Source: an uncultured Acidimicrobiales bacterium (GTDB lineage: Bacteria > Actinomycetota > Acidimicrobiia > Acidimicrobiales > VFJN01). From it: a stretch of 64,000 nt of DNA. A program made the translations under genes and the position numbers. Location: positions 127,538 to 191,537 of the forward strand of contig CAVUBW010000026.1 of assembly GCA_963739835.1 (NCBI GenBank), in the 5' to 3' direction. Below are positions 20,693-42,278 of the stretch, piece after piece. The notes beneath the pieces were generated by a model, which saw only the letters and a list, made by a program, of their open reading frames with translations, had not been told where the DNA came from and searched no databases. Positions within the stretch are counted from its first letter, which is position 1; each line of letters opens with the position of its first letter.

Positions 20693-22636
20693 TCAGTGGG
20701 GGATGAAGTCGCCGACCTGGTTGCCGGCCAGCACCGGGTCGACCGTCGTGGTCCGGACGAGCGCCTGGGTGAACAGCTCCTGGCTCGCAGGGACCGTCAC
20801 GACGCCGACGATCTGGAAACTCTGGCGCTCGCCGACGTCCAGCGTGCCGAGGTCGCACCGGACGACGTCGGGCGAAGGCGGGCCGTCCGTGAACTCGCAC
20901 CCCGGGAAGAGGCTCGTGACGTCCACGCCCGCGGGGACGAGCACGAGCAGGTCGGCGTTCTCGGCCGGGTCCGGACCGTCGTTGCGGGCGCCGGCGTCGA
21001 TCAGCACCTCGTGCTGGAGGCCGGGGCGGGCGACGATGCTCGCGCTGACGTCGGCGCCGAAGAACGACGCCGTGTAGTACTGCACGTGGCCGCCCGTGTC
21101 GGCGGCGCCGAGGTCGGTGTCGGCGCTGGCGAAGACAAGCGTGCCTGCCGGCGTGAACTGCGGGTTGGCGACCGACACCGGGCCGCCGCCGACCGCCGGG
21201 TCGCGCTGGGTCGCCCGGGTGGTCGTGGCGGTGAGCAGGTCGCGGACGTAGACGTCGGTGCCCGGCGTCGCGCCCGGGCCGAGGTCGGTGGCGGCGCTCA
21301 CGAACGCCACCCGCCGGCCGTCCGGGCTGAACGCCGGTGCCGTGCCGCCGCCGTCAGCGGCCGCGGTGCCCGCGGCGTTGACCGAGACCAGCGCGGTCGT
21401 CCCGGCCGCCAGGTCGCGCATGTAGATGTCGGGCACGCCGTTGGCGTCGGCCGGCCCGAGGTCGCTCGCCTCGCTCTCGAACACGACGTGGGTGGCGTCG
21501 GCGCCGAACCGCGGCGCGCGGGACGGGCCGTTGGCGGGTGCCGTGCCCGCGGCGTTGTCGGTCAGCCGCACGGTGTCGCCGGTGGTCAGGTCGTGCAGGA
21601 ACACGTCGCTGCGGCCGTCGAGGCGCAGGGTGAAGACGATCTTGGTGCCGTCCGGACTGAAGTGGGCGTCGTCGGCCGTGCCCGCCGTCGCGTCGATCGG
21701 CGACACGAGCGTCGTGTGGCCCCCCACGAGGTCGCGGACGTACAAGCGGCCAGACTGGTCGAACAGAGCGGTTCCCGGCACGTTCTCCACCAGGAGGCTC
21801 GCCTTGGACACGAAGGCGATCTTCGTCCCGTCCGGGCTCCACACGGTGGGCTCGAGGCCGATGCCGGCGCCCGCTGCGGCCTCGGTGCCGGCGGAGTTGA
21901 GCGTGACCAGCGACGTCGTGCCCGCCACCAGGTCGCGGATGTAGAAGTCGACGCCGAACGGGCCGTTGTTGTCGACCGGCCCGAGGTCGAACGCCGTGGT
22001 GGCGAACGCGATCTTGGTGCCGTCCGGGCTGAACACCGGCTGGAGCGCCGCGCCGTTGTTCGGGTCGGAGGTGCCGTCGCCCTTGAGCGAGACCAGCGAC
22101 GTCGTGCCGGTCGCCAGGTCGCGCAGATAGACCCGCCGGAGGGTGCCGTTGGACGGCGCACCCAGGTTGGTCGCGAGGCTGGCGAACGCGACCTTGCTGC
22201 CGTCGGGGCTCACGGCCGGCGGGTCGGAGGTGTTGTTGCCCCCGGTCACGCCGTCGGGGGCGACCGACACGAGCTCGCTCGCGCCGGTGTCGAGGTGGCG
22301 GACGTACACGTCGTCGAACCCCGGGTTGTCCTGGACGCCGGTCGCCAGGTTCGTGGCGGCGGTGGCGAACGCCACGGTCTCGCCGTCGGCGCTGACCGCC
22401 GGCGGCAGCTGCACCGCGACGGCGCGGTCGCCGGTGACCCGGCTGTCGGCGTTGCCGCCGGTGGTGCCCGCGGGGTCGACCGTGATCAGCTCGCGCCGCC
22501 ACGGTTGCGGCACCTCGCACGCGGCGGCCACCAGCGCCGCGAGCCCCGCGAGCGCGACCAGTTGCAGCTTGGACGTCCCGGTCGTGTCCCCTCCCCGGCG
22601 TGATCGGTCAGCAGGAAGCCGATGCTCTTGGTTCAC
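20693..22636 (-). CDS. PD40/TolB-like beta-propeller repeat lipoprotein with C-terminal DUF11-like domain
   Basis: C-terminal part of artefactual track ORF 20693..23608. Lipobox LAALVAAAC is followed by about 10 repeats of the type SPDG(T/S)K(I/V)AF.S.A.NL...D...DVY(V/I)RDL. Start proposed at in-frame GTG 22636; this is uncertain. Confidence 0.7.
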
Positions 22637-22715
22637 CAGGAAGTCGGTCGTGTCCGGGGCGCCCCCGGTCTCGCCGGTCAACAGCAGCACCTCTCCCAGC
22701 GTCGGTTCCGCCGTG

Positions 22716-22734
22716 CCGTGCCAGTGTGGCACGG
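22716..22734 (-). terminator. GC-rich hairpin 9 nt after the clpB stop (candidate terminator)
   Basis: CCGTGCCA-GTG-TGGCACGG, a perfect 8-bp stem. No U tract follows. Confidence 0.35.
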
Positions 22735-22742
22735 ATCGTGCG

Positions 22743-25240
<2,498 letters not shown>

Positions 25241-25269
25241 GCCGCACAGGATACAACCCGCTCACCAAA

Positions 25270-25290
25270 CTTGATAGTCAGGCACTCAAG
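25270..25290. promoter_or_regulatory. HAIR-type HspR operator upstream of clpB
   Basis: CTTGATA-GTCAGGC-ACTCAAG versus the published HAIR consensus CTTGAGT-N7-ACTCAAG (12 of 14 positions). It lies 30-50 nt upstream of the clpB start at 25240. Confidence 0.65.
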
Positions 25291-25304
25291 TTCGGACAGG
25301 CCGA

Positions 25305-25360
25305 CGCGTTTTGTCCCTGGAACTGGTCGCCAGAACGACCACTTCGGGGGACAAAACGCG
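25305..25360. repeat. ~55-nt palindromic repeat unit (copy E2), 9 nt downstream of the BY-kinase stop
   Basis: CGCGTTTTGTCCCTGGAACTGGTCG-CCAGAA-CGACCACTTCGGGGGACAAAACGCG. Same family as 8233-8288 and 51561-51616. Confidence 0.8.
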
Positions 25361-25368
25361 GGTCTGCC

Positions 25369-27126
25369 TCAGTTCCTCGCCGGGGGGGCCACGTCCCAGT
25401 CGGCATCGGGGTCGCCCTCGTCGTCGGCCCAGCGGGGCCGGCGACCGCGGCGGCCGTTGCCGCTCTCCTGCTCGACCGGGCCCTTGTGGTGGCGGGCGCG
25501 GGCGCTGGAGGTGGTCTCGTAGCGGTAGGGCTCGCCGCCGAACGAGTCGTCCGGGGACAGGCTGTTGAGCACCGTGCCGGCCAGCGGGGCGTCGACCTGG
25601 CGGAGCAGCTCGACCGCCCGGGCCAGGCTGCGCTTGGACGTGCGGTTGACCGACGTCACCAGCAGCGTCGTGTCGGCCATGCGGGCGAGGACCAGGGAGT
25701 CGGTGACCGCCAGGACCGGCGGGCAGTCGATGACCACCACGTCGTAGGTCTGGCCCAGCACGTCGATGAGCCGCCTCGCCCGCTCGCCGCTCAGCAGCTC
25801 GGACGGGTTGGGCGGCGGGTAGCCGGCCGGCAGGACCGAGAGGTTGGGCACCGAGGCCACCGTCTGGATCGCCTGGGGCAGCGTGACGTCGCCGATGAGC
25901 ACCGCCGTGAGGCCCGGCGTGAGCGGGACGTCGAGCACCTCCTCCATGCGCGGGCGCCGGAGGTCGCCGCCGACCAGCACGACCCGGTCGCCGGCCTGGG
26001 CGAACGCGATCGCCAGGTTGACCGCCACCGCGGTCTTGCCCTCGCCCGGTGACGGGCTCGTGACCTGCACGACCCGCACCTGGCGCTCGATGCTGAGGAA
26101 CTTGACCGACGTGCGCAGCAGGCGGAACGCCTCTGCCGCCGGGGCGTTGGGGTAGTCGACCGTCACCAGGTCGGAATCGGAGTCGTACTTGGGGATCAGG
26201 CCCAGCGTGGTGACGCCGGTGACCTGGTCGACCATCTCCTTCGACTTGACCGAGTCGTCGAAGTAGTCGCGCACGAACGCGAGCGCCGCCCCGAGGAACA
26301 GGCCGAACACCAGGCCGATCGCCAGGTTGAGCGGCAGGTTGGGGCTGACCGGCGTGTCGGGCGCCCCGGCGAGGCTGAGCACCTCGGCGCCGCCGCCGGC
26401 CGACAGTTCGACGCCCAGATCGACGTTGGAGAGCGTCCGCTGGATCTGGGCCGCCTGCGAGGTCAGCGGGTCGGTCTGCTCCTTGAGCGCCGCGGCGGTC
26501 TGCGTCCGCTGCGCGATCAGGGCGGTCGGGTTGCCCTGGTCGGTGGCGATCTGGGCGTCGATTGCGGCGAGCGGCTGGTTGATCGCGTCGATCTGGTCTT
26601 GGGTCTCCTGGAGCAGCGCCTCGAGCCGGCCCTTGGTCGTGTTCAGCCGCTCCTGGTCGATCGACTCGCGCAGAGCGACGTAGGTGTTGGCGTAGACGTT
26701 GACCAGCGTGGCCGCGGCCACCGGGTCGGTCGACAGCAGCGACAGCTCGACCACACTGGACGTGTTGCTGTTGTCCTCGACGCCGACCGGGCTGGCCGAG
26801 ACCCTGAAGATCTCGCCCTTGGACATCGAGCCCGTGTAGGCCTTGGCTACCGCGAACCGCATGCGGGACGACGAGATGAACGCGAGCTGGCTGCTCGCCT
26901 GGCGGTTGAGGTCGCCGCCGCCGTTGACGCCGAACACCATCGCCACCGGGTCGTTCACGCCGGTCGTGAGCACCTGGGCACGCACGCGGTAGCGGGGTTG
27001 GGGGACGACCGAGACCGCGATGGCAACGCCCACGCACACCAGCGTCGTGATGATCACGAGCCAGCGGCGCCGGGCGATGATCCCCAGATAGGACCGGAGA
27101 TCCGGCTCCTCCAGCGACGACTCCAT
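25369..27126 (-). CDS. polysaccharide biosynthesis tyrosine autokinase (Wzz-like domain plus BY-kinase)
   Basis: Track ORF, 585 aa. N-terminal TM plus chain-length-determinant region, second TM, then [18 protein letters not shown] (Walker A), [20 protein letters not shown] and a C-terminal YRYE. Confidence 0.85.
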
Positions 27127-27205
27127 GAGGCCCCGATCCTACAGGGAGCGGGTCTGCCCGGTCAGACTGAGCGCCCGGCCCGGCCTTGCGGCCGCATCGT
27201 CATGG

Positions 27206-27705
27206 CTGGCCGGTTGTCGTGGCTTCGGTTGGGTGTTGGCACTTGCGCGGGTGCTGGTCTGGCCCAGGGGCTGGTAAGGAGGCCGCCCGGGGGCGGCCTC
27301 CAATGTGAGTGTGGGGGCGGTCGGGTGGGCGTCAAGGACAAGCTCGCTGCGCTCGGCCGCCTGCGGCGGCTCCTTGACCCCCACCCGACCGCCTTTTTCC
27401 ACGCACGGTGGCCCTGGCTCGCCCCTGTTCTGGGGTCTCTTCGTTCTGGGTCGCGAAAGTGGTTGATAACCAACCACTTTCGAGGCCAGTTGCCCGCGCA
27501 ACGACTTCCCCCCGGTTAAACCAACGGTGTAAGGGTCACCGTGAGTGTCAAACGGGCGGTCGGGCGGGGGTCAAGGAGCCCCGCAGGGGCCCGTGCGCAG
27601 CACGGCTTGTCCTTGACGCCCGCCCGACCGCCCCAACAATCCCCAAAGAGGCCGCCCCCGGCGGCCTCCTAACCGGCCTCGTTATCGTTTGGTCGTTTTC
27701 GTTGG
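27206..27705 (+). repeat. ~0.5-kb structured repeat, copy 1 (core 27271-27676 with ~120-bp imperfect terminal inverted repeats)
   Basis: Aligns by eye with 36258-36761, with about 10 differences over the ~405-bp core. Hairpins: GGAGGCCGCCCGGGGGCGGCCTCC (27278-27301); GGCGGTCGGGTGGGCGTCAAGGA...TCCTTGACCCCCACCCGACCGCC followed by TTTTT (27317-27398); central palindrome GAAAGTGGTTG-ATAAC-CAACCACTTTC (27455-27481). Mirror-image hairpins lie at 27554-27676. Confidence 0.85.
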
Positions 27706-27871
27706 GGTTGGAGCGGCGACCAAGGGCCAGCCGGGCGCCCTCCACTAGCCTGGCCCGATCGCACTGGTCGCCCAGCCCTTCGGCGGCGGACAGCCGTCCC
27801 GGCCGTTTGCGCTGCCCGCCGGTCCGCCGGCCGAGCGGCGGCCACCGGTCGCGCCCCGCCGCCGGTCCCGC

Positions 27872-29164
27872 ATGGGCGGGGCGCTCTTCCTGGCGTGCCT
27901 CGGCCTCGCCCTGCTCGGCTTCAACAAGTTCCGGGTGGCGGGCACGCCGATCTCCGACATCGTGTTCCTGCTCGGTGCGGTGGTGACCGGGCTCAAGATG
28001 CTGTCGGGCAACACCGGCGACCTCTCGCCCCCGGCCATGCGCAAGACGTCGCCGCCGATCCTCCTGGGCACGATCCTGCTCGGCGCGGCCGGGACCATCG
28101 CCTGCCTCCAGTCGTTCACCCCCGCCGACTCGGCCATCCAGGTCGTGCGGATCGTGTGGATCACGCTCGTCTGGTTCTGGTTCCTGCGGGCCGTGACCCC
28201 CGACCGGATCGCGCTCAACCGGCTGTTCAAGGCGTTCGAGATCACGATCACCGTGAGCTGCATGGGAGCCATCGCCGGCTACTTCGGCCTCATCCACCTC
28301 ACCCGCGACAACCCCGACAACCGCCAGGCCGCGTGGTTCGGCCACCCCAACGAGCTGGGCGGCCTGCTGATCGTGGCCATGCCGCTCGTCGTGATGGGCC
28401 TGCCATGGCGGGACCAGCAGACCACCAAGCTGCCCTGGCGCCGCGTCGCCATGTTCGGGCTGGTCGGCTTCGCCATCGGCACGACCGGATCGCTCACCGC
28501 CTTCATCTCCACCGCCGTCGCCTTGTCGCTGTGCGTCGGGCTCAGCGTGCTGACCAAGGGCCCGCGGGCGCCGGGCGCGAAGCCGCCCAGCCCGATCCCC
28601 ATCCTGCTCGGGATGGCCGTGGCGGTGGCAGGCATCGCCTGGCTGTTCAGCAGCAACCTGCCCGTGATCGACCGGCTCACCCAGCTCGAGGGCGGCGACA
28701 GCGCGGTCAACGAGAGCGTGACCTCGCGGGGCAACGTCAACAACTTCGTCATCGGCAACTTCGACCACTCGCTCGTGACCGGCGTGGGCCTCGACGCCAA
28801 CACCAATTTCGTCAGCGAGCAGGACGGGCAGGTCGGCGCGTCCCGCGTCCACAACATGTTCCTCAAGCTGCTCTACGAGACCGGCGTCCCCGGGCTCGTG
28901 GGCCTGCTCGTCGTCGTGGTCGCCAGCGTCCGCCAGGCCTGGCTGCTCGTGCTCAACACGCGCGGCACGCCGCTGCACGCGGCGTCGATCGGGCTGATGT
29001 CGTCGATCCTGTCGATCAACGTGTTCGCGATGTTCCAGCCCGTCTTCGCCCAGCGGTTCTACTGGTTACCACTGGCCCTCGTGAGCGTGCTCTGGGCGCT
29101 GCGCCGCCAGGAGCTGCGGGACCGGTACCTCCACGGGCTCGCCGCCGCGGACGTCGCGGTCTGA
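27872..29164 (+). CDS. O-antigen ligase/polymerase family membrane protein (Wzy_C-like)
   Basis: Track ORF, 430 aa with about 10-12 TM segments. Contains AAWFGHPNELGGLLIVAMPL and SRVHNMFLKLLYETGVPGLVGLL, typical of O-antigen ligase/polymerase-like proteins. Confidence 0.75.
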   Translation: MGGALFLACLGLALLGFNKFRVAGTPISDIVFLLGAVVTGLKMLSGNTGDLSPPAMRKTSPPILLGTILLGAAGTIACLQSFTPADSAIQVVRIVWITLVWFWFLRAVTPDRIALNRLFKAFEITITVSCMGAIAGYFGLIHLTRDNPDNRQAAWFGHPNELGGLLIVAMPLVVMGLPWRDQQTTKLPWRRVAMFGLVGFAIGTTGSLTAFISTAVALSLCVGLSVLTKGPRAPGAKPPSPIPILLGMAVAVAGIAWLFSSNLPVIDRLTQLEGGDSAVNESVTSRGNVNNFVIGNFDHSLVTGVGLDANTNFVSEQDGQVGASRVHNMFLKLLYETGVPGLVGLLVVVVASVRQAWLLVLNTRGTPLHAASIGLMSSILSINVFAMFQPVFAQRFYWLPLALVSVLWALRRQELRDRYLHGLAAADVAV

Positions 29165-30376
29165 GGCCGCCTCGGCCCGCAGCGCCCCGTAGGTCACCAG
29201 CCACACGATCGCCGCCAGGCCCTGGCCCACGGCGAACCCGACGACGAAGCCCATCAGCCCGCCGATCAGGGCCCCGCCGAGCGGGCACACGACCATGAAG
29301 CCGATGCTGCGCAGCCGGGCGCCGATGCCCTTGGTGCCGTCCAGCGAGCGCACGCCGACCAGCCCGCCGGCGATGAAGCCGGCGCCGACCATGGCGACGC
29401 CCATCGGCACGAGGATGCCGTCGGCGGTGGCCCAGGTCGGGCCGAACAGCGCCCGGCCGAACGAGTCGGGCAGGATGACGCCGACCGCGGTCCACGCCAG
29501 CGACGACGCGCCGACCAGCAGCGACGCGCCGACGACCAGGCGGAGCAGCCGCTCGGGCTGCTCGCGCAGCCGCATGCCCTCGGGCAGCGCGGCGAGCAGG
29601 ACGCCGGCCTGCAGCGTCATGATCGGGCCGAAGAACAGCCACCCCGCCCGGACCGCGCCGTACGCGGTCAGCCCGAGGATCCAGCCGCACCCGACCAGCG
29701 CCAGGTAGGTCCCGGCCTGGGCGGCTGCGTACTCGCCGAGGAACCGGACGCCGAGCGCCCGGTGGTCGCGGAAGTACACGAGCGGGCGGGGCCGGTGGTC
29801 GAAGCAGCGCCAGCAGATCGCCGACGCCACCGCGGCGCCCAGTATGCCGCCGGCGCCCCACGCCAGCACGTACCAGCCGACCTGGGCCGACGCGGGCGCC
29901 ACGGCGATCGCCGCGCAGCTCGCGGCCAGCCACACCAGGTCGATCGTGAGCGCCATCGCCGGCCGGTCGATCATGAGCATGTAGCGCCAGGCGTCCTGCA
30001 GGAGGACCAGCGGCAGCACGACGGCGAGCGCGACCAGCGCCGAGCCGGCCATGCCCCCGAGGGCCGTGCCGGCGAGCGCGACCGCGACCGCCACCGCCAC
30101 CCCGAACGTGAACATCGCGCCGAGGTAGCTGGGCACGAGCGCCCGGCGGTCCGCCTCGGCTCGGGCCGAGTGCTGCGAGATCATCGGCTCGGCCACCAGC
30201 CCGCGGGCGCAGCCGACGGTGAACTGGAACACCAGCACCGCCACCCCGAACGCGGCGAACGGCTCGGGCGTGGCAAACGAGCGCGCCACCAGGATGGCGA
30301 CCACCACGTTCGACAGGCTGGAGGCCGCCTGGTCGGCGACGACCAGCACCCGGCGGGCATTGGTCGCGGTGGCCAC
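29066..30376 (-). CDS. polysaccharide flippase (Wzx/MOP superfamily)
   Basis: Track ORF, 436 aa: MATATNARRVLVVADQAASSLSNVVVAILVARS.. with about 12 TM segments. Its start lies 4 nt after the epimerase stop. The 3' end overlaps the convergent ligase gene by 99 nt. Confidence 0.75.
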   Translation of the reverse strand: MATATNARRVLVVADQAASSLSNVVVAILVARSFATPEPFAAFGVAVLVFQFTVGCARGLVAEPMISQHSARAEADRRALVPSYLGAMFTFGVAVAVAVALAGTALGGMAGSALVALAVVLPLVLLQDAWRYMLMIDRPAMALTIDLVWLAASCAAIAVAPASAQVGWYVLAWGAGGILGAAVASAICWRCFDHRPRPLVYFRDHRALGVRFLGEYAAAQAGTYLALVGCGWILGLTAYGAVRAGWLFFGPIMTLQAGVLLAALPEGMRLREQPERLLRLVVGASLLVGASSLAWTAVGVILPDSFGRALFGPTWATADGILVPMGVAMVGAGFIAGGLVGVRSLDGTKGIGARLRSIGFMVVCPLGGALIGGLMGFVVGFAVGQGLAAIVWLVTYGALRAEAASDRDVRGGEPVEVPVPQLLAAQRPEHAHEGQW

Positions 30377-30380
30377 CCGC

Positions 30381-31377
30381 CTAGCGGTCTCGGGAGAGCG
30401 ACGCGGCGACCTGGTCGTGGACCCAGGCGTAGGTGGCGGCGAGGCCGTCCTCCAGCGTGATCGACGGCGCCCAGCCCAGCCGCTCGCGGATCAGCGTGTT
30501 GTCGCTGTTGCGGCCGCGCACGCCCTTCGGGCGCGTCGAGCTTGTAGCGCGCGCTTCAGCTTCACGCCGGCGATCTCCTCGACGATGTCGACGAGCTGGT
30601 TGATCGTGACCAGCTCGTCGCTGCCGACGTTGAGCGGCTCGACGATGTCGCTGTGCCATGAGCCGCAGCGTGCCCTCGAGGCAGTCGTCGATGTACATGA
30701 AGCTGCGGGTCTGCTCGCCGTCGCCCCAGATCTCGATCTCGTGGTCGCCGGTGAGCTTGGCGTCGATGACCTTGCGGCAGATCGCCGCCGGCGCCTTCTC
30801 GCGGCCGCCGTCCCAGGTGCCGTGCGGGCCGTAGACGTTGTGGTAGCGCGCCACGCGCGTCGCGAGGCCGAAGTCCTCGCGGAAGTGGCGGCACATCCGC
30901 TCGCTGAACAGCTTCTCCCAGCCGTAGCCGTCCTCGGGCATCGCCGGATAGGCATCGCTCCTCGCTCAGCGGCGGTGACGTCGGTGCGGCGTCTGCTTGT
31001 CGGCGGCGTAGACGCAGGCCGACGACGAGTAGAAGAAGCGCTCGACGCCGGCGTCGCGGGCCGCCATCAGCATGTGGGTGTTGATCAGCACCGACAGCAT
31101 GCACAGCGGCCTTGTTGTGTCTCGATGAAGCCCATGCCGCCCATGTCGGCCGCGAGGTTGAACACCGTCGTCGACGCCCGTCGACCGCCCGGCGGCAGGC
31201 GTCGAGCAGCTGCAGGTCCGCGCTGCATGTTCTCGACGTCGTCGAAGACCTGGTACCACTCGTCCAGCGGCTTGACAGTCGACGGCCGCGGATCCGGCCG
31301 ACCCCGTCTTCCCGTAGCCGGCGCACCAGGTGGCCCCCGATGAAGCCCCCGGCGCCGGTCACCAGCACATGGTCCAT
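30381..31377 (-). pseudogene. NAD-dependent sugar-nucleotide epimerase (GDP-mannose 3,5-epimerase-like), frame-disrupted
   Basis: MDHVLVTGAGGFIGGHLVRRLREDG (ATG 31377) / FYSSSACVYAADKQT / YGWEKLFSERMCRHFREDFGLATRVARYHNVYGPHGTWDGGREKAPAAICRKVIDAKLTGDHEIEIWGDGEQTRSFMYIDDCLEGTLRLM / EPLNVGSDELVTINQLVDIVEEIAGVKLKR / RGRNSDNTLIRERLGWAPSITLEDGLAATYAWV lie in different frames. At least 4 frame changes. Confidence 0.8.
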
Positions 31378-31384
31378 TGTGAGG

Positions 31385-32737
31385 TCAGGTCTCCTGGGTC
31401 CGGGCCACCGCCTGGCGGACGATGGCCCGGTCGATGACGTCCTGGAAGCGGTCGGCGATGACCGCGGTGTCGAACGTCGTCTCAGCGTAGGCGCGAGCAC
31501 TGCGCCCAGCCGAAGAACGCAACGCTGCGTCGGTGCGGAGCTGCTTCGCCGCGACGAGGAAGGCCTCCTCGTCTGACGGTGGGACCACGAGGCCGGCGCC
31601 GGCCCGCTCGATCGTGCGGGCGGCGAGGTTCTCGGGCGGGATGGCGGCCAGAATGGGCCGGGCCGCACAGAGGTAGGACAGCACCTTGGACGGGACGGAG
31701 AAGGTGCCGGCGGTCGGCTCCAGCAGCGCGACCAGCACGTCGGCGGCGCCGAGAATGTCCGGGTAGTCGGACATCGCCTGGAACGGCAGCAGGTGCAGGT
31801 TGGGCAGCGGGTCTTTGCGCAGCAACTCCCGGAGGCGGGCCTCGCCCATGCCCTCGCTGACCACCACGACGTCGGCGTCGCCGGAGCGCTGCTCGGCGAG
31901 CCGGTACAGCAGCTCGGGCCGGTGCTTGAGCCCGAGGGTGCCCGTGTAGAGGTAGACGAACCGGTCGCCGAGGCCCCGGCGCTGGCGCCACTGGTTGTCG
32001 CGGGGGCGCAGCGGCAGGTCGCCGAGCGGCGCCCAGTTCTCGATGACCGTGCAGTCGTCGGCGTCGATGCCCCAGGAGGCGAGCATCGGCTCGAAGTCGT
32101 CGGTGATCGACACGACGCCGGATGCCTGGCGCAGCAGCCGCCGCTCCAGGGCCTCGAAGCTCGTGCCGACCCGGCGCCCGAGGCGGGCGGCCCCGAAGCG
32201 CTCGCAGCGCTTCTCGGCCTCGGCGGTCATCGCCACGCTGTGGAGGTCCTGGAGCCAGAAGACCCACGGGACGCCCACCTTGCGGCACCAGGCCGCCGCC
32301 ACCGACTTGGCGACGAGCGGCACGTTGCAGGCGAGCACGACGTCGGGCCGGAACCCGGCGGCGACGCGGGTGAAGCGTCGGCCGTAGGCGGCCTCCTGGC
32401 TGATGCGGCGCACGGGCGCGTAGCGGGCGAACGACTCGCCCGCCGGGATGGCGACGACCGAGAGGTTCCCGTCGTCGTCGCCGCGCTCGAAGCGACCCTT
32501 GCCGCTGGTGTACGACCCGCAGTAGACGTGCTGGACCTGGTTGCCCCGCTGGGCCAGCGCCCGGCTGAGGTCGATCTGGAACGGATGGCCGGCGAAGTCG
32601 TGGACGAGGATGCGCAACGTGCGCGAGCGGGCTTGCTCGCCGGGAGCGACCGCAGGACGCCGCGCCGGCGGCGTGCGTGCGTCACTCACCGGGTCCGCAT
32701 CCGATTCGCGGAGCCACATCGACGTGTCCTCCCCCAC
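31385..32737 (-). CDS. GT4 glycosyltransferase (WcaI-like)
   Basis: Track ORF: ..RILVHDFAGHPFQIDLSRALAQRGNQVQHVYCGSY...VVSEGMG...PSKVLSYLCAARPILA. The homology-consistent start may be TTG at 32617 (MRILVHDF..) rather than 32737. Confidence 0.8.
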   Translation of the reverse strand: MGEDTSMWLRESDADPVSDARTPPARRPAVAPGEQARSRTLRILVHDFAGHPFQIDLSRALAQRGNQVQHVYCGSYTSGKGRFERGDDDGNLSVVAIPAGESFARYAPVRRISQEAAYGRRFTRVAAGFRPDVVLACNVPLVAKSVAAAWCRKVGVPWVFWLQDLHSVAMTAEAEKRCERFGAARLGRRVGTSFEALERRLLRQASGVVSITDDFEPMLASWGIDADDCTVIENWAPLGDLPLRPRDNQWRQRRGLGDRFVYLYTGTLGLKHRPELLYRLAEQRSGDADVVVVSEGMGEARLRELLRKDPLPNLHLLPFQAMSDYPDILGAADVLVALLEPTAGTFSVPSKVLSYLCAARPILAAIPPENLAARTIERAGAGLVVPPSDEEAFLVAAKQLRTDAALRSSAGRSARAYAETTFDTAVIADRFQDVIDRAIVRQAVARTQET

Positions 32738-32889
32738 GTTGCGCCGAACCCCTGGGTTCCCCTGCTGAGGCCGGATTCCGACCCTGTCCTACGGACGGCC
32801 CCAGCGATCCGGGCGGCCAGACGACCGCTTGTGACCGAAGAGTAAGATACGAATCTCGTGCCGTCCACTCCTGTGTCCTGGGACACACG

Positions 32890-34083
32890 ATGAGGGTTCT
32901 CGTCGTTCACAACCGCTACTCGTCGCGTTCACCCTCCGGTGAGAATGCGGCCGTCGACGACGAGATCCGCTGGCTCGGCATTGCGGGCGTCGACGTGGTC
33001 ACCCACCAGGTCAGCAACGACGAGATGGTCGACGTCGGGCCGCTCGACCGGGTGCGCGACGGGCTCGGCGCGGTGTGGTCGGTCGCGGCCCGCCGGCGCT
33101 TCGAGCGAATGCTCGACGAGTGCCGGCCGGACCTCGTCCACGTGCACAACCTGTTCCCGCTGCTGAGCGCGAGCGTGCCGCTGGCCGCCCGGCGCCGGGG
33201 GACGCCGCTCGTGTGGACCGTGCACAACCGCCGGGTCCGCTGCGTCGCCGGGGGGTACTTCCGGGACGGCCAGCCGTGCCACCAGTGCCGGCCCGGCTGG
33301 CGGGTGCCCGGCGTCGCCCACCGGTGCTACGCCGACTCGCTCGGCGCCAGCGCGCTGGTCACGGCGGCGACCTCGATCTTCCGCCGGGCGGCCCGCCGCG
33401 GGGTCGTGCCGGTCGCCATCAGCCGCACGATCGCCGACTGGCTGGGGTCGGCCGGCGGGTTCGACCGCGCCGCCGTGCGGGTCAAGTACAACGGGGTCGA
33501 CGCCCCGACCGACCCGCCGCCCCCGCCCGGCGAACAGCGGCGGTTCTGCTTCGTGGGGCGGCTGTCGGCGTACAAGGGGATCGTCCCGATGCTGGCGGCG
33601 TGGCGGGCGGCGGACGTGGACGCCGAGCTGCACATCCTCGGCGACGGCGACCTGGCCGCCGAGGTGCGGGCCGCAGCCGCCGCCGACCCCCGGATCGTCT
33701 GGCCGGGCCAGGTCCCGCCGGCCCAGGTCGCCGACACCCTGCGGGCGAGCCGGGCGATGCTGGTGCCGTCGCTGTGGGAGGAGGGGTTCGGCCGGGTGGC
33801 GGCCGAGGCCCAGGCGTTCGGCCGGCCGGTCATCACGTCCGGGCACGGCGGGCTGGCCGAGATCGTGGACGACACGACGGGCTGGATCACCGGCACGTCG
33901 GTCGCTGCGCTGGCCGCCGCGATCGGGGAGGCGGCGACGTCGTCGGAGGCGGTCGACCGCCGGGGGGCGGCGGCGGCCCGGCGCCACGCCGAGCGGTTCA
34001 GCCCCGAGGTCACGACCGCCGAGCTGATCCGCATCTACGAGGACGCCCGCCGGCCGCAGGCGGCGTCGGCCGCGGGGGCATGA
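32890..34083 (+). CDS. GT4 glycosyltransferase (paralog 1 of a tandem pair)
   Basis: ATG 32890 in track ORF 32677..34083: MRVLVVHNRYSSRSPSGENAAV..VHVHNLFPLLS..C-x11-CHQC-x12-C..LVPSLWEEGFGRVAAEAQAFGRPVI. Confidence 0.85.
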   Translation: MRVLVVHNRYSSRSPSGENAAVDDEIRWLGIAGVDVVTHQVSNDEMVDVGPLDRVRDGLGAVWSVAARRRFERMLDECRPDLVHVHNLFPLLSASVPLAARRRGTPLVWTVHNRRVRCVAGGYFRDGQPCHQCRPGWRVPGVAHRCYADSLGASALVTAATSIFRRAARRGVVPVAISRTIADWLGSAGGFDRAAVRVKYNGVDAPTDPPPPPGEQRRFCFVGRLSAYKGIVPMLAAWRAADVDAELHILGDGDLAAEVRAAAAADPRIVWPGQVPPAQVADTLRASRAMLVPSLWEEGFGRVAAEAQAFGRPVITSGHGGLAEIVDDTTGWITGTSVAALAAAIGEAATSSEAVDRRGAAAARRHAERFSPEVTTAELIRIYEDARRPQAASAAGA

Positions 34084-34087
34084 CGCC

Positions 34088-35329
34088 GTGCGGGTCGTCG
34101 TCGTCCACAACCGGTACTCGTCGCTGACCCCGTCGGGCGAGAACGTCTCGGTCGCCCAGGAGGTCGAGGGCCTCCGGGCCGCCGGGGTGGACGTGACGGT
34201 CCACGAGACCTCCAACGACGAGGTGCTGGGCGGCGGCGTGGCCGTGCGCGTGCGGTCGGCGGCCGGGTCGGTGTGGTCGCCGGGCGCGGCGTCCCGCTTC
34301 GGCGCGGTGCTCGACCGGGCCCGGCCGGACCTCGTCCACGTCCACAATCTTTTCCCGCTGTTCACGTCGAGCGTGCCGGGCCGGGCGGTCCGGGCGGGCC
34401 TGCCGGTCGTGTGGACGGCCCGGAACCTGCGCGTGCTGTGCGTCGAGGGCACCCACTTCCGCGACGGCGCCGACTGCGCCGACTGCCGGGCGGGCTGGCG
34501 GGTGCCGGGCATCCGCCACGGCTGCTACCGCGGGTCGGTCGCCGGCAGCGCGCTGATCACGGGGGCGACGTCGATCTTCCGGCGGCTGGCCCGCACCCGC
34601 CTGCAGACGATCGCGATCAGCGAGACGCTGCGCGACTGGCTGGTGGCGGAGGCGGGGTTCGACCCGGATCGGGTGCGGGTGAAGTACAACCCGATCCCGG
34701 CGCCCGGGTCGGCGGCCGCCGTGGGCGACCCCTCGGCGGGCCGGGAGTTCCTGTTCGTCGGCAAGTTCGCCGTCTACAAGGGCATCGACCTGCTGCTCGA
34801 CGCGTGGGGCCGGGTGTCGGCGCCGGAGGCCCGGCTGTGCTTCGTGGGCGACGGCCCGCAGGCCGACACGGTCCGGGCGGCGGCGGCCCGTGACCCCCGG
34901 ATCGAGTGGACGGGCCAGCTCCCGGTGGCGGAGGTGGCCGCCCGCATGGCCGCGGCCAGGGCCGTCGTCGTGCCGTCGGTGTGGGACGAGCCGTTCGGCC
35001 GTGTGGCGGCGGAGGCGTTCGCGACCGGCCGCCCGGTGATCACGACCGGTCGGGGCGGGCTGCGCGAGGTGGTCGGCGACGAGGCGGGCTGGGTGACGGG
35101 GACCGACCCGGCGGCACTGGCGGCGGCCATCGACGAGGCGGCGGCGTCGGACGAGGCGGTGGCGGCGAGGGGCGCCGCGGGCCGGACGCGCCACGCCCGG
35201 CTGTTCTCGGTCGAGGCGACGACGGCGGCGCTCATGGAGCTGTACGAGTCCGCGATCGCGGACCCCGAGCACGGGGGGCGACCGGCGGGTAACATCGCTG
35301 AGGAGCGGGGAAAGCGTCCGCAGCGCTGA
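34088..35329 (+). CDS. GT4 glycosyltransferase (paralog 2 of a tandem pair)
   Basis: Track ORF: MRVVVVHNRYSSLTPSGENVSV..VHVHNLFPLFT..C-x11-CADC-x12-C..VVPSVWDEPFGRVAAEAFATGRPVI. Collinear with the upstream paralog. Confidence 0.85.
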   Translation: MRVVVVHNRYSSLTPSGENVSVAQEVEGLRAAGVDVTVHETSNDEVLGGGVAVRVRSAAGSVWSPGAASRFGAVLDRARPDLVHVHNLFPLFTSSVPGRAVRAGLPVVWTARNLRVLCVEGTHFRDGADCADCRAGWRVPGIRHGCYRGSVAGSALITGATSIFRRLARTRLQTIAISETLRDWLVAEAGFDPDRVRVKYNPIPAPGSAAAVGDPSAGREFLFVGKFAVYKGIDLLLDAWGRVSAPEARLCFVGDGPQADTVRAAAARDPRIEWTGQLPVAEVAARMAAARAVVVPSVWDEPFGRVAAEAFATGRPVITTGRGGLREVVGDEAGWVTGTDPAALAAAIDEAAASDEAVAARGAAGRTRHARLFSVEATTAALMELYESAIADPEHGGRPAGNIAEERGKRPQR

Positions 35330-35350
35330 GGACGGACCAGGGGGAGCATC

Positions 35351-36256
35351 GTGGATACGACCACCACAGCACGCTCTCCCGGGCGGGTTGCGGTCACCGG
35401 GCGCGGCGAATCCGCCGCACAGAGCGATGCCACGTCACCGTCGGTCAACCGGCCCCGGTGGCTGACCTCGCTGGTGGCGGTGCTGGTGGTGGTCGACGGC
35501 CTGGCGATGGCGGCCGCGACGTTGACGGCCAAGCTCACGGTCACGGGCGCGGAGGGCGCCGAGGTCCACATCCGCTCGATCCGCCTGCCCGACACGGCGC
35601 TGGGCCTGGCGACGATCCCCACGTGGCTGGTGATCCTGGCCCTGGCCGACGCCTACGACGTCGGCCCGTTCGGCACGATGTCGGGACTCTGGACGAGGGT
35701 CGTGCGGGCCGGCGCCCAGCTGCTGGCGGTCGTGGCGGTGGCCTACTACGTGCTCCACCTGGCGCTGGTCGGCAGGGGCGTGCTGGCGGCGGTGGTGCCG
35801 CTGGCGGTGGTCTTCACCCTGGGCGCTCGGGCGGCCGTGGCCACCGTCCTGCGCCGCGCCAGACGCCGCGGCCGAGCCCGCCGCACGGCCCTGGTCGCGG
35901 GATCGCGCCGGGGCATCGACGCGGTGATCGACCAGCTGGCGGATCGCCCGGCGAGCGGCATCACCCCGATCGACGCCCTGGTCCTGGGCCCGGACGCCGA
36001 CAACGGCAACGCCGGCAAGCTCCCGGTGGCAGCCGGCGACGTGGGCGCAGCGGTGAGCGCGGCGCTCGCGACGGCAGGCGCCGAGGCGCTGATCGTCACG
36101 GGCGGGCTCGCTCGAGGTCAGCTCCGCGACATCGCCTGGCGCTTGGAGGGCACGGGCGTCGAGCTGCTGGTGATGCCGGCGCCTAGCGAGCTGGAGGAGC
36201 TGAACGCGGACATCCGGCCCGTTGCCGGGCTGCCGTTGTTTTACGTCGAGCGTTGA
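35351..36256 (+). pseudogene. exopolysaccharide polyprenyl-phosphate glycosylphosphotransferase, N-terminal 301 aa only (catalytic C-terminal domain missing)
   Basis: Track ORF has four TM helices, then a Rossmann-like region (RRTALVAGSRRGIDAVIDQL...EALIVTGGL...VELLVMPAP...IRPVAGLPLFYVER*). In this family the Bac_transf domain (about 190 aa) normally follows at this point. Here the TGA at 36254-36256 is followed 2 nt later by repeat copy 2. Confidence 0.7.
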
Positions 36257-36257
36257 T

Positions 36258-36761
36258 CTGGCCGCTGTTCTGGTCTTGGGTTGGGTGTGGGCACTTGCGT
36301 CGCGCGCGGGTCGGCCCTGGGGCTGGTAAGGAGGCCGCCGGGGGCGGCCTCCAATGTGATGGTGGGGGCGGTCGGGTGGGCGTCAAGGACAAGCTCGCTG
36401 CGCTCGGCCGCCTGCGGCGGCTCCTTGACCCCCACCCGACCGCCTTTTTCCACGCACGGTGGCCGTGGGTCGCCTCTGTTCTGGGGTCTTTTCGTTCTGG
36501 GTCGCGAAAGTGGTTGATAACCAACCACTTCCGAGGCCAGTTTCCCGCGCAACGACTTCCCTCCGGTTAAACCAACGGTGTAAGGGTCACCGTGAGTGTC
36601 AAACGGGCGGTCGGGCGGGGGTCAAGGAGCCCCGCAGGGGCCCGTGCGCAGCACGGCTTGTCCTTGACGCCCGCCCGACCGCCCCAACAATCCCCAAAGA
36701 GGCCGCCCCCGGCGGCCTCCTAACCGGCCTCATTTCGTTTTCGTTTCGGTCGTTTTCGTTG
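36258..36761 (+). repeat. ~0.5-kb structured repeat, copy 2 (core 36323-36726), same orientation as copy 1
   Basis: Same hairpin series as copy 1; central palindrome at 36506-36532. The left edge abuts the truncated transferase stop. The right edge lies about 5 nt from the true hspR stop (36766). The tail carries TCGTTT-type short tandem units with a different copy number from copy 1. Confidence 0.85.
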
Positions 36762-36765
36762 TCGT

Positions 36766-37148
36766 TCAGCGGCCGCGGGTGTCGAACACAGCGACCGCCT
36801 GACGCAACGGCACGAGGTCGCGGCGGTACTGGCGGTGGGTGTCGGCCACCGCGGCGGAGGCCTGGCGGCGGACCTCGGCCAGCTCGGCGTGAGGCTGGCG
36901 ACCTCGGCCTCCAGCTCCAGGACCCGCGGCACGCCGTCGAGGTTGAGGCCCTCGTTGGTGAGCTCCTGGATGCGGCGGAGCCGGTCGATGTCGGCGTCGC
37001 TGTAGCGGCGGCTGCCGCCGCTGGTGCGGGCCGGGTCGACCAGGCCCTTGCGCTCGTAGATGCGCAGGGTCTGCGGGTGCACGCCGGCCAGCTCGGCGGC
37101 GACCGAGATGACGTAGACGGCGCGCGTGGACTCACGGGCGGCGGGCAT
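36766..37148 (-). pseudogene. hspR: heat-shock repressor HspR (MerR family) with one frame slip near 36,890
   Basis: [78 protein letters not shown] is in the track frame. After the slip the sequence continues [42 protein letters not shown] (own translation; stop at 36766-36768). Confidence 0.85.
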
Positions 37149-37154
37149 GGCGCA

Positions 37155-38322
37155 TCATCCATCCTCGACTCCGAGATGGGCGCGGGGCGAGCGGCCGTTG
37201 CTGGCCGCGGCCAGGGCCTCGACCGCCGCGCGCTCGCTCGTCGGTCAGCTGCGGCGGGCACCGCGACCTCGACGGTGACGAGCAGGTCGCCGGTGCGCCT
37301 TGGCGGTCGGCGACGCCGCGGCCCTTGCACCCGGAACGTGCGGCCGGACTGGGTGCCGGGCGGGATCCGGAGCGTGACCGGGCCGCCGTCGAGCGTCGGC
37401 ACCTCGACGTCGGCGCCGAGCGCCGCCTCGGCGAAGGTGATCGGCACCGCGCAGCGTGAGGTTGTCGCCGTCGCGGCCGAACAGCGGGTGCGGCGCGACC
37501 GTGGCACGTCGACGAGCAGGTCGCCCGGCGGGCCGCCGTTGCGGCCGGGACCGCCCCGGCCCTTGCAGCCGGATGCGCTGGCCGTCGGCGACGCCGGCGG
37601 GGATGCGCACCTTGACCTCGCGGGGCCGGCGCTCGACGCCGCGGCCCCGGCAGGTCGGGCACGGGTCGGTCGATCGATGCAGCCCCGGCCGCCGCAGGTC
37701 GGGCACGGCTGGGAGAACGAGAAGAAGCCCTGGTTGTCGTCGACCACGCCGCGGCCGCTGCACTCGCGGGCAGGTGTGCGGCGCGGTGCCCGGCTTGGCG
37801 CCCGTGCCGTGGCAGGTGCCGCACGGCGCGTCGCTCGTGAGGTGGAGCGTGGTGGTGAGCCCGCGCACGGCGTCGGCGAAGTCGAGGTGCAGCTCGGCCT
37901 CGAGGTCGTCGCCGCGCTGCGGGCCGGTGCCGCGCGCCGGACCGCCGCGCGCCGCCGCGCCCGCCGACCGCGCCGAACAGGCCGCCGAGCAGGTCGCCGA
38001 GGTCGCCGACGTCCTCGAACCGGAAGCCGCCCGGACCGCCGGGCCGCCGGCGCCGCCGGGCCGCCGAACCCGCCGCCGCATCGGGCCGAGCCGGCGGACC
38101 TCGTCGTACTCCTTGCGCTTGGCCTCGTCGCCGACCACGTCGTAGGCGGCCGAGATCTCCTTGAACCGCTCCTCGGCGGCGGCGTCGCCGGGGTTGGCGT
38201 CGGGGTGGTAGCTCGCGCGCCAGCTTGCGGTACGCCTTGGTGATCTCCTTCGGCGTCGCGTTCTCGGCGACGCCGAGGACCTTGTAGTAGTCCTTCTCGA
38301 ACCACTCGCGCTGCGGTGCCAT
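37155..38322 (-). pseudogene. dnaJ: chaperone DnaJ, frame-disrupted
   Basis: [38 protein letters not shown] / [18 protein letters not shown] / [43 protein letters not shown] / CPTCRGRGV / [19 protein letters not shown] / [11 protein letters not shown] lie in different frames. Own translation gives the true stop at 37155-37157, 6 nt before the hspR ATG. Confidence 0.85.
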
Positions 38323-38973
38323 CAGCCGCTCCTCTCGTCAGCTCCGCGTCGCACCTTCGACCATGCGCCGGCCGCAGCGACCCGGCCCTTCCAGCGGTAG
38401 CCGGTGCGCAGCACCTCGGCGACCACCGGCTCGCCGCCCTCGCCCGGCTCGTGCATGCACCGCCTCGGCGACGGTCGGGGTCGAACGGCTCGCCCTCGGG
38501 GTCGAGCGGCTCGAGGCCCTCCTTCTGCGAGCGCGCCGAGCAGCGCGGCCAGCACCGGCTCGACGCTCGGTCGGCGCCGTGGGCGACGCCGGCCTCGCAC
38601 GCGTCGAGCACCGGGCAGCAGCTCCTCGACGAGCCGGCCGCGTCGGCCCGCTCGACCTCGTCGTCGCTGCCGCTTCTGCGACCCGCTTGCGGTAGTTCTC
38701 GAAGTCGGCCTGCGACCCGGCGGCATGCCTCGAGGTACTGCGTCGCGCTCGGCCAGCAGCACTCGGTCGACGTCGAGCGTCGGCGCGTCGAGTCGCTCGC
38801 CGAGGTCGGCTCGTCGGCCGTCGCCGTCGCCGTCGCCGGTCGCCGGCGCGCGACGTCGGCCGTCGGCGACCGTCGCCGCCGCGTCGTCGGTGCCGGCCGG
38901 CGTCGTCGCTGGCGTCGGCCGGTCGTCCGGCGGCCTCGACCGCCTCGCGGTCGGCTCGGTCGCGGATCGCTCA

Positions 38974-38974
<1 letters not shown>
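38322..38974 (-). pseudogene. grpE: nucleotide exchange factor GrpE, frame-disrupted
   Basis: Fragments LAERD / [10 protein letters not shown] / [15 protein letters not shown] / [15 protein letters not shown] / [35 protein letters not shown] were recovered by own translation in shifting frames. The stop overlaps the dnaJ ATG (TGATG). The start is approximate. Confidence 0.75.

Positions 38975-42278
<3,304 letters not shown>

Follow-up and report, generated by a model that had tools for sequence, protein, structure and literature searches.

Bacterial MITEs such as Correia of Neisseria, RUP/BOX of Streptococcus and Nezha of cyanobacteria are small, non-coding elements with long inverted-repeat arms. 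For Correia elements, an outward promoter and terminator-like hairpins have been described. REP/REPIN/BIME sequences of proteobacteria, which are mobilised by RAYT transposases of the Y1 HUH type whose genes are flanked by REPs, contain short palindromic units in inverted doublets that form hairpins and occur in hundreds of copies, and ERIC/IRU of enterobacteria are imperfect palindromes of ~127 bp. In composite transposons and in genomic islands flanked by direct repeats, two direct copies bracket accessory-looking genes. It was this last arrangement that a sequence-only reading saw in the 64-kb window (the whole stretch of DNA analysed here) of an uncultured Acidimicrobiales bacterium: two direct repeats around a surface-glycan cassette, taken as the borders of a composite or recombination-delimited module. 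Here, we come to a different view. With a probability of about 80%, the two repeats represent a MITE/REP-like element, dispersed, non-coding and restricted to one lineage, and were inserted secondarily into an ancestral locus without delimiting the cassette.

The repeat pair itself was recovered by repeat search, MAFFT and blastn as near-identical direct repeats at the positions first described (Table 1; 506 alignment columns, E = 0), and blastn revealed no third copy of the repeat in the 64-kb window. Divergence between the two copies is strongly uneven along the element (p = 1e-7). The 410-nt palindromic cores are 97.6% identical, with 10 differences, and two stretches of the copies, one of 167 and one of 103 nt, match perfectly; identity falls to 78% in the outer left arm and to 76% in the right tail (~77% for the ends). 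The earlier estimate of about ten core differences and more diverged outer parts was thus accurate. The description of the flanks was also upheld: the BY-kinase gene lies just outside the left copy and the dnaK operon just outside the right copy, and the right copy is indeed tightly wedged, beginning 2 nt past the stop of the upstream ORF and ending ~5 nt short of the true hspR stop codon (36766-36768). The extent given for the left copy applies to the shared repeat, but the whole insertion starts 32 nt further left, and this part (27174-27205) is absent from the right copy. GAGCG, which stands on both sides of the left insertion, is a candidate target-site duplication; no clear equivalent was found at the right copy. 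The repetitive tail blurs the ends of the element.

The element is a nested palindrome of about 435-540 nt without coding capacity; the ORFs that overlap it are spurious, high-GC ones. A variable hairpin lies at its centre; on each side of this come an inverted pair of a 24-nt motif, which makes four motif copies in all, and then a terminal GC hairpin, and a degenerate (CGTTT)n tail follows the last of these. Terminal hairpin T1 is conserved in all full copies and M1 contains a 30-nt block that is invariant between copies, whereas the central hairpin differs in sequence between copies, with compensatory changes. The arms are ~200 nt long and ~73-80% complementary. Copies L004, L001, L007 and L010 have symmetric ends; five copies, both window copies among them, carry a non-mirrored alternative left arm. 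On the minus strand, T2 precedes TTTGGGGATTG, and transcripts arriving from the right would meet this as a terminator-like signal. The promoter-like site, a consensus match, would point to Wzy in the left copy and antisense into hspR in the right copy.

Table 1 Coordinates of the two insertions, their internal modules and the adjoining genes.
Feature	Position	Strand	Remarks
Left copy, part common to the right copy	27206..27705	+	in divergent BY-kinase/Wzy spacer; 93.9% identical to 36258-36761
Full left insertion versus empty MAG site	27174..27712	+	539 nt in place of ~8 nt
Right copy = full right insertion	36258..36765	+	between CoA_binding_3 gene stop and hspR stop
GAGCG, candidate 5-bp target-site duplication, unproven	27169..27173	.	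partner 27709-27713; sequence read
Palindromic core, left copy	27269..27678	.	~73% match to own reverse complement
Palindromic core, right copy	36321..36729	.	repeat search, self-comparison, segment alignment
Terminal GC hairpin T1, GGAGGCCGCC-N4-GGCGGCCTCC	27278..27301	.	DNA fold -14 kcal/mol, z -5.0; right copy 36330-36352
Arm hairpin M1, two inverted 24-nt motifs GGCGGTCGGGYGGGSGTCAAGGA	27316..27393	.	-35.9 kcal/mol; right copy 36367-36444
Central hairpin GAAAGTGGTTG-ATAAC-CAACCACTTTC	27454..27483	.	right copy 36505-36534
Arm hairpin M2, second inverted motif pair	27554..27634	.	-45 kcal/mol, z -9.7; right copy 36605-36685
Terminal GC hairpin T2	27648..27671	.	right copy 36699-36722
Promoter-like site TTGACG-N16-AACAAT, outward-facing	27613..27640	+	consensus match only; right copy 36664-36691
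BY-kinase-type gene (Wzz + AAA_31/ParA-like P-loop domains), outside left copy	25369..27126	-	domain search; orthologue L013 8032-9786
Wzy_C (O-antigen ligase/polymerase family) gene, first inside bracket	27872..29164	+	domain search
301-aa membrane protein, CoA_binding_3 domain only, full-length	35351..36256	+	domain search, homologues
hspR (MerR family), last dnaK-operon gene, frameshifted in assembly	36766..37148	-	comparison with relatives

Evidence for secondary insertion comes from relatives. The gene order clpB, BY-kinase, Wzy … CoA_binding_3 gene, hspR-dnaJ-grpE-dnaK is common to the MAG of a sister species and to three or four further relatives, and both repeat sites are empty in all of them. 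The spacer between BY-kinase and Wzy measures 745 nt in the window versus 214, 214, 228 and 212 nt in relatives; the spacer between the CoA_binding_3 gene and hspR in relatives has 100 nt or, on a 15.7-kb contig of JGI 3300056388, 8 nt. Homology of 91-92% between the window and the MAG locus (L013) reaches 27173, resumes at 27713 and continues to 36257, and L013 retains no trace of the element; homology to another relative (L012) breaks at 36257/36258 and 36765/36766. The cassette is found at the identical locus, but without repeats, in L013 and in the contigs P0004, P0123 and P0125. The element occupies these sites in one lineage and is missing from the orthologous sites of others. Since the relatives keep the cassette and the gene order with both sites empty, the cassette is the ancestral part and the repeats were inserted later. 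The idea of a composite or recombination-delimited module cannot be upheld against the same cassette in the same place with neither repeat in the sister MAG and the metagenome relatives. The comparison of relatives for presence or absence of the cassette, which the sequence-only reading had proposed, gave the same answer: the cassette is there, the repeat copies are not.

Outside the window, the 24-nt motif was found in only one of 185,579 species genomes scanned, the Acidimicrobiales MAG of the sister species, at 11 loci on 5 contigs; the family is thus recorded from two genomes so far. The MAG copies are 72-91% identical among themselves and 79-88% identical to the window copies; the latter, at 97.3%, are more alike than any two MAG copies, which reach 91% at most. 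Partial and variant modular copies are present (L002, L005 and L006), two of which are mosaics (L002, L006). The MAG copies start 0-36 nt past stop codons and their neighbours are unrelated housekeeping genes; neither transposase nor glycan genes were found beside the 11 loci, and no transposase with matching ends was detected among the window ORFs scanned or beside the MAG copies. The element is dispersed, and the family is habitually located immediately 3' of genes. That it marks cassette borders had been suggested, but 11 dispersed intergenic loci in the MAG with no enrichment at glycan cassettes speak against this; such a distribution was what the sequence-only reading itself had named as refuting its view.

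Searches of other collections gave little. Rfam had no match in the whole window at gathering thresholds, and at E values up to 10 only sub-threshold hairpin-type matches to models of eukaryotic miRNA precursors. BLAST against plasmid and phage collections gave no match to the element, and viral contigs gave none either. The invariant terminal 21-mer, searched for in metagenomes, matched once and by chance, within a coding sequence of an organism of 55% GC. The repeat is probably a point at which short-read assemblies break. A literature search retrieved no relevant description of a comparable actinobacterial MITE. Taken together, this is a new MITE/REP-like family in an uncultured soil Acidimicrobiales group: less than ~600 bp in length and without coding capacity, with inverted repeats, dispersed copies and filled and empty orthologous sites. 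The features of a composite transposon are lacking, as the cargo is present without the repeats and the flanking units are non-coding palindromes without a transposase.

The gene content between the copies was mostly as first described: Wzy_C, three GT4 genes, an epimerase gene (frameshifted in the assembly) and the CoA_binding_3 gene. However, the gene taken for a flippase had no Pfam hit, and the priming transferase did not stand. The product of the 35351-36256 ORF lacks the C-terminal catalytic Bac_transf domain (PF02397) of polyprenyl-phosphate glycosyl-phosphotransferases such as WbaP, and tblastn with PglC found no Bac_transf-type domain in the whole window. This ORF had been regarded as a truncated transferase, but its homologues all have ~290-350 aa with CoA_binding_3 only, and a relative ends at the same residue (…LFYVDR*). 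That the right copy cut short a priming transferase is thus ruled out: ~300 aa is the natural size of this protein family and the stop is the native gene end. Neither integrase nor transposase was found among the window ORFs scanned, and the window represents core chromosome.

How did the two copies come to lie around the cassette? Both would have entered two short intergenic spacers of a conserved chromosomal locus in which the cassette was already present. They may have been mobilised in trans by a transposase that recognises the repeated arm motifs, and selection may limit surviving insertions to tiny spacers. Two simple independent transpositions alone are insufficient, because of the 97.3% closeness of the pair and the strongly uneven divergence; the homogenised core hints at gene conversion between the two copies, which could later have held the cores alike while the ends drifted apart. 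A variant of this scenario, which refines the preferred explanation and does not compete with it, starts from one insertion followed by local copying, that is local hopping or ectopic gene conversion, with continuing conversion keeping the cores alike. We consider it a tentative possibility, with somewhat less than even odds. It fits that the window copies are each other's nearest relatives, that both combine the alternative left arm with an L004/L001-type centre, a combination absent from the MAG copies, that core and ends differ so much in identity, and that left-copy variants occur in the right copy of an independent contig, L015. On the other hand, the closeness may merely reflect a subfamily of the source genome, since the copies compared outside the window are all from the MAG, and a cross-over in the de Bruijn graph could have produced what is seen in L015. 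Tn3-type ends with a 5-bp target-site duplication were not adopted as an explanation: there is only one candidate duplication and a 9-nt resemblance to such ends.

Other explanations account for less of this evidence. The direct orientation of the copies, the close bracketing of the cassette and the core identity are what one would expect if the repeats were functional borders of a mobile glycan module, acquired together with the cassette in a composite-transposon-like manner or by Campbell-type integration. This is very improbable, given that the cassette of the sister MAG is 91% identical at the nucleotide level throughout and, as in the other relatives, occupies the same locus with neither repeat, that no integrase or transposase was seen in the scanned ORFs and that the element is dispersed at unrelated loci. 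Another option, which we regard as unlikely, is that a gene for a structured non-coding RNA, or a cis-regulatory RNA element, was duplicated at two sites and forms a long rod-like hairpin serving as terminator or stabiliser. The fold of the palindromic core is very stable (z-scores of -16.5 and -13.6), compensatory changes affect eight base pairs, mostly in the central stem, the copies lie directly past stop codons, and terminator-like terminal hairpins and a promoter-like site are present. But the element is without an Rfam match, its two strands fold almost equally well, and the arm mismatches show no bias of G:U over A:C. Because these mismatches are strand-symmetric (G:T 39 versus A:C 29), the element is a DNA inverted repeat and an RNA-selected hairpin is ruled out. 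Filled and empty orthologous sites and modular partial copies are, in addition, typical of mobile DNA. The element may still have a regulatory side-effect on neighbouring genes.

The assembly also deserves attention, as the element is a dispersed repeat and many indel errors are found in clpB, the epimerase gene and the dnaK operon; one junction could have been joined falsely through the repeat. There is next to no chance that this is so. In independent assemblies of relatives, the two flanks of each copy lie next to one another, and L015, a short-read metagenome contig, crosses the left junction of the right copy in the filled state; the junction at the right copy is not an assembly join, because this independent contig shows it too. 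Judged by coordinates, a Logan contig that encodes an identical Wzy stops ~20 nt into the tail of the left copy. Synteny across both copies in relatives together with L015 therefore disposes of an assembly join, which had been named as a possible refutation. The frameshifts in the dnaK operon are not pseudogenisation linked to the insertion, since indels cluster in every highly conserved gene (clpB, epimerase, dnaJ/K), yet those orthologues that were inspected are intact (clpB, epimerase, hspR and dnaJ in the MAG, dnaK in a related contig). The pattern fits consensus errors of Nanopore metagenome assembly (source project PMC12313526).

The main value of these results is corrective. What looked like a cassette bracketed by repeats is two generic dispersed-repeat insertions into a conserved locus, and the supposed gene truncation is a native end. 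The undescribed MITE/REP-like repeat of a poorly known lineage is useful for repeat annotation, for explaining breaks in short-read assemblies and as a strain or species marker. Of the suggestion that the repeats are a RecA substrate for cassette deletion, the mechanistic part holds: the long identical runs make homologous recombination between the copies possible. Hypothetically, the pair could let homologous recombination delete the 8.5-kb cassette, which would make for a deletion-prone architecture around a surface-glycan locus. It is tempting, if a long shot, to speculate that recombination between the copies works as a low-frequency on/off switch, part of the population losing the Wzy-dependent cassette by deletion, while the promoter-like site and the terminator-like hairpins rewire expression of Wzy and BY-kinase and run antisense into hspR-dnaK. 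Likewise, a mechanism new for Acidimicrobiia could underlie mobilisation of the family; this is conceivable because of the nested-hairpin modules, the lack of a clear target-site duplication and the stop-codon-adjacent sites.

How does the element compare with the known systems? With composite transposons and genomic islands it has in common two direct copies around accessory-looking genes, but its flanking units are devoid of genes, and relatives lacking the repeats show the "cargo" to be ancestral at this locus. Like ERIC/IRU, it is an imperfect palindrome in transcribed intergenic regions near stop codons, and related species differ in whether a given site is filled or empty; ERIC is shorter, unrelated in sequence and belongs to another host phylum. 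The likeness to REP/REPIN/BIME is in the 24-nt motif, arranged in inverted, hairpin-forming doublets, in the reassortment of modules into mosaics and in the extragenic position directly downstream of genes, often where two genes converge. In contrast to these, the motif is not palindromic in itself, the copy number is low (~11 loci) and the doublets form part of a larger unit bounded by terminal hairpins. From the MITEs named above it differs in being larger (about 435-500 nt), in its nested palindrome with five hairpins and two alternative left ends, in having a candidate target-site duplication only and no parent IS found, and in its restriction to two Acidimicrobiales genomes. It shares with them the small size, the lack of coding capacity, the long inverted-repeat arms, the multiple dispersed intergenic copies and the presence/absence polymorphism at orthologous sites and, with Correia elements in particular, a possible outward promoter together with terminator-like hairpins.

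The 0.5-kb repeat that brackets the Wzy-type glycan cassette is a modular inverted-repeat element without coding capacity, which occurs dispersed and is polymorphic for insertion. In the window, whose G+C content is 73.4%, its copies at 27206-27705 and 36258-36761 form a direct repeat with 93.9% identity over 506 columns (E = 0). Repeat finding, MAFFT and blastn all returned these coordinates, in agreement with the sequence-only reading on position, orientation and tight flanks; no third copy was detected by blastn in the 64 kb. The right copy starts 2 nt past the stop codon of the 35351-36256 reading frame and ends about 5 nt short of the hspR stop codon (36766-36768). Identity between the copies is 78% in the outer left arm, 97.6% in the 410-nt core and 76% in the right tail, with perfect runs of up to 167 and 103 nt; the earlier count of about ten core differences and more divergence outside was thus accurate (10 in 410 nt).

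Each copy forms an extensive imperfect palindrome (27269-27678 is about 73% identical to its own reverse complement) of nested, modular organisation, and either strand is predicted to fold as a rod about 400 nt long (z-scores −16.5 and −13.6). The element had no match in Rfam at gathering thresholds, and permissive thresholds added nothing beyond sub-threshold hits to hairpin-type models for eukaryotic miRNA precursors. When each left arm was aligned to the reverse complement of its own right arm, G:T and A:C mismatches were roughly balanced (39 vs 29). This near equality gives no support to an RNA fold of either strand in particular; the palindrome is therefore read as an inverted repeat at the DNA level. 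Long blocks such as GGCGGCTCCTTGACCCCCACCCGACCGCCT and GGCCTCCTAACCGGCCTC are invariant across all copies; the central hairpin varies in sequence between copies and keeps its self-complementarity.

Features of the element, its variants in the genome of a probable sister species (MAG loci L002-L011) and homology of the window to the orthologous MAG locus (L013)
Feature	Coordinates	Where	Description
T1	27278-27301	left copy	terminal GC hairpin
M1	27316-27393	left copy	hairpin from two inverted copies of the 24-nt motif GGCGGTCGGGYGGGSGTCAAGGA
C	27454-27483	left copy	central hairpin
M2	27554-27634	left copy	second inverted motif pair
T2	27648-27671	left copy	second terminal hairpin
Tail	after T2	left copy	degenerate (CGTTT/G)n
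Left end type 1			mirror of right end
Left end type 2		both window copies, L003, L009, L011	different arm, ~65 nt
Variant	6860-7110	L006	single arm fused to different module
Variant	4752-5323	L002	different centre, duplicated internally in tandem
Variant		L005	fragment
Homology block 1	22761-27173	window	L013 5440-9833, 92%
Homology block 2	27713-36257	window	L013 9842-18369, 91%
Homology block 3	36766-38602	window	L013 19500-21293, 85%

A scan for the four-fold motif, with one genome per species for 185,579 species, matched one genome alone, with 11 loci spread over 5 contigs of the Nanopore MAG "uncultured Acidimicrobiales MFD04850.bin.2.134". Its MFD prefix fits the Microflora Danica long-read soil project (PMC12313526). 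The window DNA is distinct from this MAG and probably represents a sister species, since the syntenic DNA is about 91% identical. No match was found in plasmid and phage collections or viral contigs, and a metagenome scan with the invariant terminal 21-mer gave one match only, by chance, in an unrelated organism. Eight MAG loci carry full-length copies, 72-91% identical among themselves and 79-88% to the window copies; the other three carry partial or variant forms. In L002 and L006 the common arm module (terminal hairpin plus motif pair) occurs with other repeated modules, GGGACGCGTGTTACGC… and GGTGCCCGAGGGCGTCGGCGACACGCT…. The family as a whole is a mosaic whose modules reassort.

The MAG copies lie 0-36 nt past gene stop codons, often tightly between two genes; the tight wedging of the window copy is therefore a trait of the family. 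Their neighbours are unrelated housekeeping genes: α/β-hydrolase and M13 peptidase, acyl-CoA synthetase, LuxR and TetR regulators, G6PD and P450, glycogen-debranching enzyme and TauE, subtilases, SerA and a LeuA-like protein, methionine aminopeptidase and methyltransferase. Neither glycan-cassette genes nor transposases are among them. The repeats had been read as cassette boundaries, and this does not hold for a generic element dispersed over unrelated sites. At one MAG locus (L011:2969-3160) a convergent Methyltransf_28 reading frame enters the element about 190 nt before its stop; the insertion may have replaced the native C terminus, or there may be an assembly indel.

A mobile or recombination-delimited cassette, as had also been proposed, is contradicted by the MAG and other relatives, which hold the cassette at the same locus without the repeats. 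The orthologous MAG locus reads clpB, BY-kinase, Wzy, membrane protein, epimerase, GT4 genes, CoA_binding_3 gene, methyltransferase, hspR, dnaJ and grpE, and is homologous to the window in three continuous blocks. From the gap between the first two it follows that 539 nt (27174-27712) stand in place of about 8 nt at the left site. The BY-kinase/Wzy spacer measures 745 nt in the window, against 214 nt in the MAG; three other relatives, from metagenomes, have 214, 228 and 212 nt. The first 32 nt of the left insertion (27174-27205) have no counterpart in the right copy, and a 5-bp GAGCG on both sides is a candidate target-site duplication with no clear equivalent at the right. In a 15.7-kb contig of a relative (protein 90% identical) the same gene order continues into hspR-dnaJ-grpE-dnaK, and the stop codons of the CoA_binding_3 gene and hspR lie just 8 nt apart; in another relative the spacing is 100 nt. 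The MAG (L013, 18369-19500) and a further relative (L012, 1116-2247) carry a Methyltransf_21 gene instead of the element, and their homology to the window breaks exactly at 36257/36258 and 36765/36766. The empty sites of the MAG hold no remnant of the element. As the cassette is intact in relatives with empty sites, the cassette and its position beside the dnaK operon are ancestral and both repeats are later insertions. Of the proposed mobile or recombination-delimited cassette, only the potential for homologous deletion between the two repeats, via identity runs of 100-167 nt, still stands. The CoA_binding_3/hspR junction is a hot spot of change among close relatives (8 nt, 100 nt, Methyltransf_21 gene or 0.5-kb element). 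The sister genomes also differ downstream of clpB, where window 20811-22760 (about 1.95 kb; the PD40/DPPIV_N/DUF11 part of the 20693-23680 frame) corresponds to only about 45 nt in the MAG.

An assembly artefact at the copies, which the sequence-only reading had considered in the form of a false join, is ruled out: in relatives the two flanks of each copy are genuinely adjacent, and a short-read contig assembled independently from a different sample (L015, 97% identical) leads out of the CoA_binding_3 gene, across the same junction of stop codon plus "TC", and 184 nt into the element. A Logan contig whose Wzy is identical starts about 20 nt within the tail of the left copy (from coordinates, not DNA), as is expected of an assembly breaking at a repeat. 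In L015 (1307-1490) the right-site copy lacks 22 nt of the T1 hairpin and then carries left-copy variants (AATGTGAGTG…), being 99% identical to 27285-27412 of the left copy downstream of the gap; gene conversion between the copies, or else a short-read assembly graph that crossed from one copy to the other, would account for these variants. The window copies are 97.3% alike, exceeding every pair of MAG copies, and have a module combination in common that is absent from the MAG copies. Divergence at their ends is about 10 times that in their cores (p = 1e-7). Gene conversion that homogenises the core, or ends prone to slippage, would fit this pattern better than one recent copying event.

Frameshifting indels cluster solely in the most conserved genes of the window (22761-25400, 30400-31500 and 36766-40900), with 14 events each in clpB and the epimerase and 24 across hspR-dnaJ-grpE relative to the MAG orthologues and essentially none in neighbouring genes; dnaK is broken into six frame pieces. 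Intact orthologues exist for clpB, epimerase, hspR and dnaJ in the MAG, and for dnaK in a related contig. The indels therefore look like errors of consensus calling or polishing where a long-read metagenome assembly meets conserved genes, not like signs of pseudogenes.

Within the cassette, the epimerase was confirmed via its orthologues, and the presumed flippase (29066-30376) had no Pfam match. The 35351-36256 product has CoA_binding_3 as its sole domain and had been taken for a truncated transferase. Among the 120 homologues listed of 154 matches (E ≤ 1e-10), almost all have about 290-350 aa and the same architecture, including those 86-90% identical, and the L012 orthologue stops at the equivalent residue (…LFYVDR*), so that the short form is native. 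PglC tblastn found no Bac_transf catalytic domain in the 64 kb. The family comprises widespread Acidimicrobiales membrane proteins of about 300 aa, corresponding to the N-terminal CoA_binding_3 part of WbaP-type priming transferases without the catalytic domain, and its gene has a conserved position at the end of the glycan cluster. The adjacent GT4 genes 33097-33973 and 34295-35180 are paralogues (about 71% DNA identity across about 0.9 kb) from an old tandem duplication; the matching MAG region is called as one fused 590-aa product.

The element would presumably be mobilised in trans by a transposase, for which the obvious candidate recognition sites are the four conserved 24-nt motifs together with the invariant subterminal hairpins. 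Selection or target preference may confine surviving insertions to tiny spacers after stop codons. Short T-rich stretches come after the terminal hairpins on the inward-reading strand, and judged from this arrangement the hairpins could terminate incoming transcription. Near the right end lies an outward promoter-like site, TTGACG-N16-AACAAT (27613-27640 and 36664-36691), predicted to be aimed at Wzy from the left copy and antisense into hspR from the right copy. The element is a new MITE/REP-like family in an uncultured lineage.
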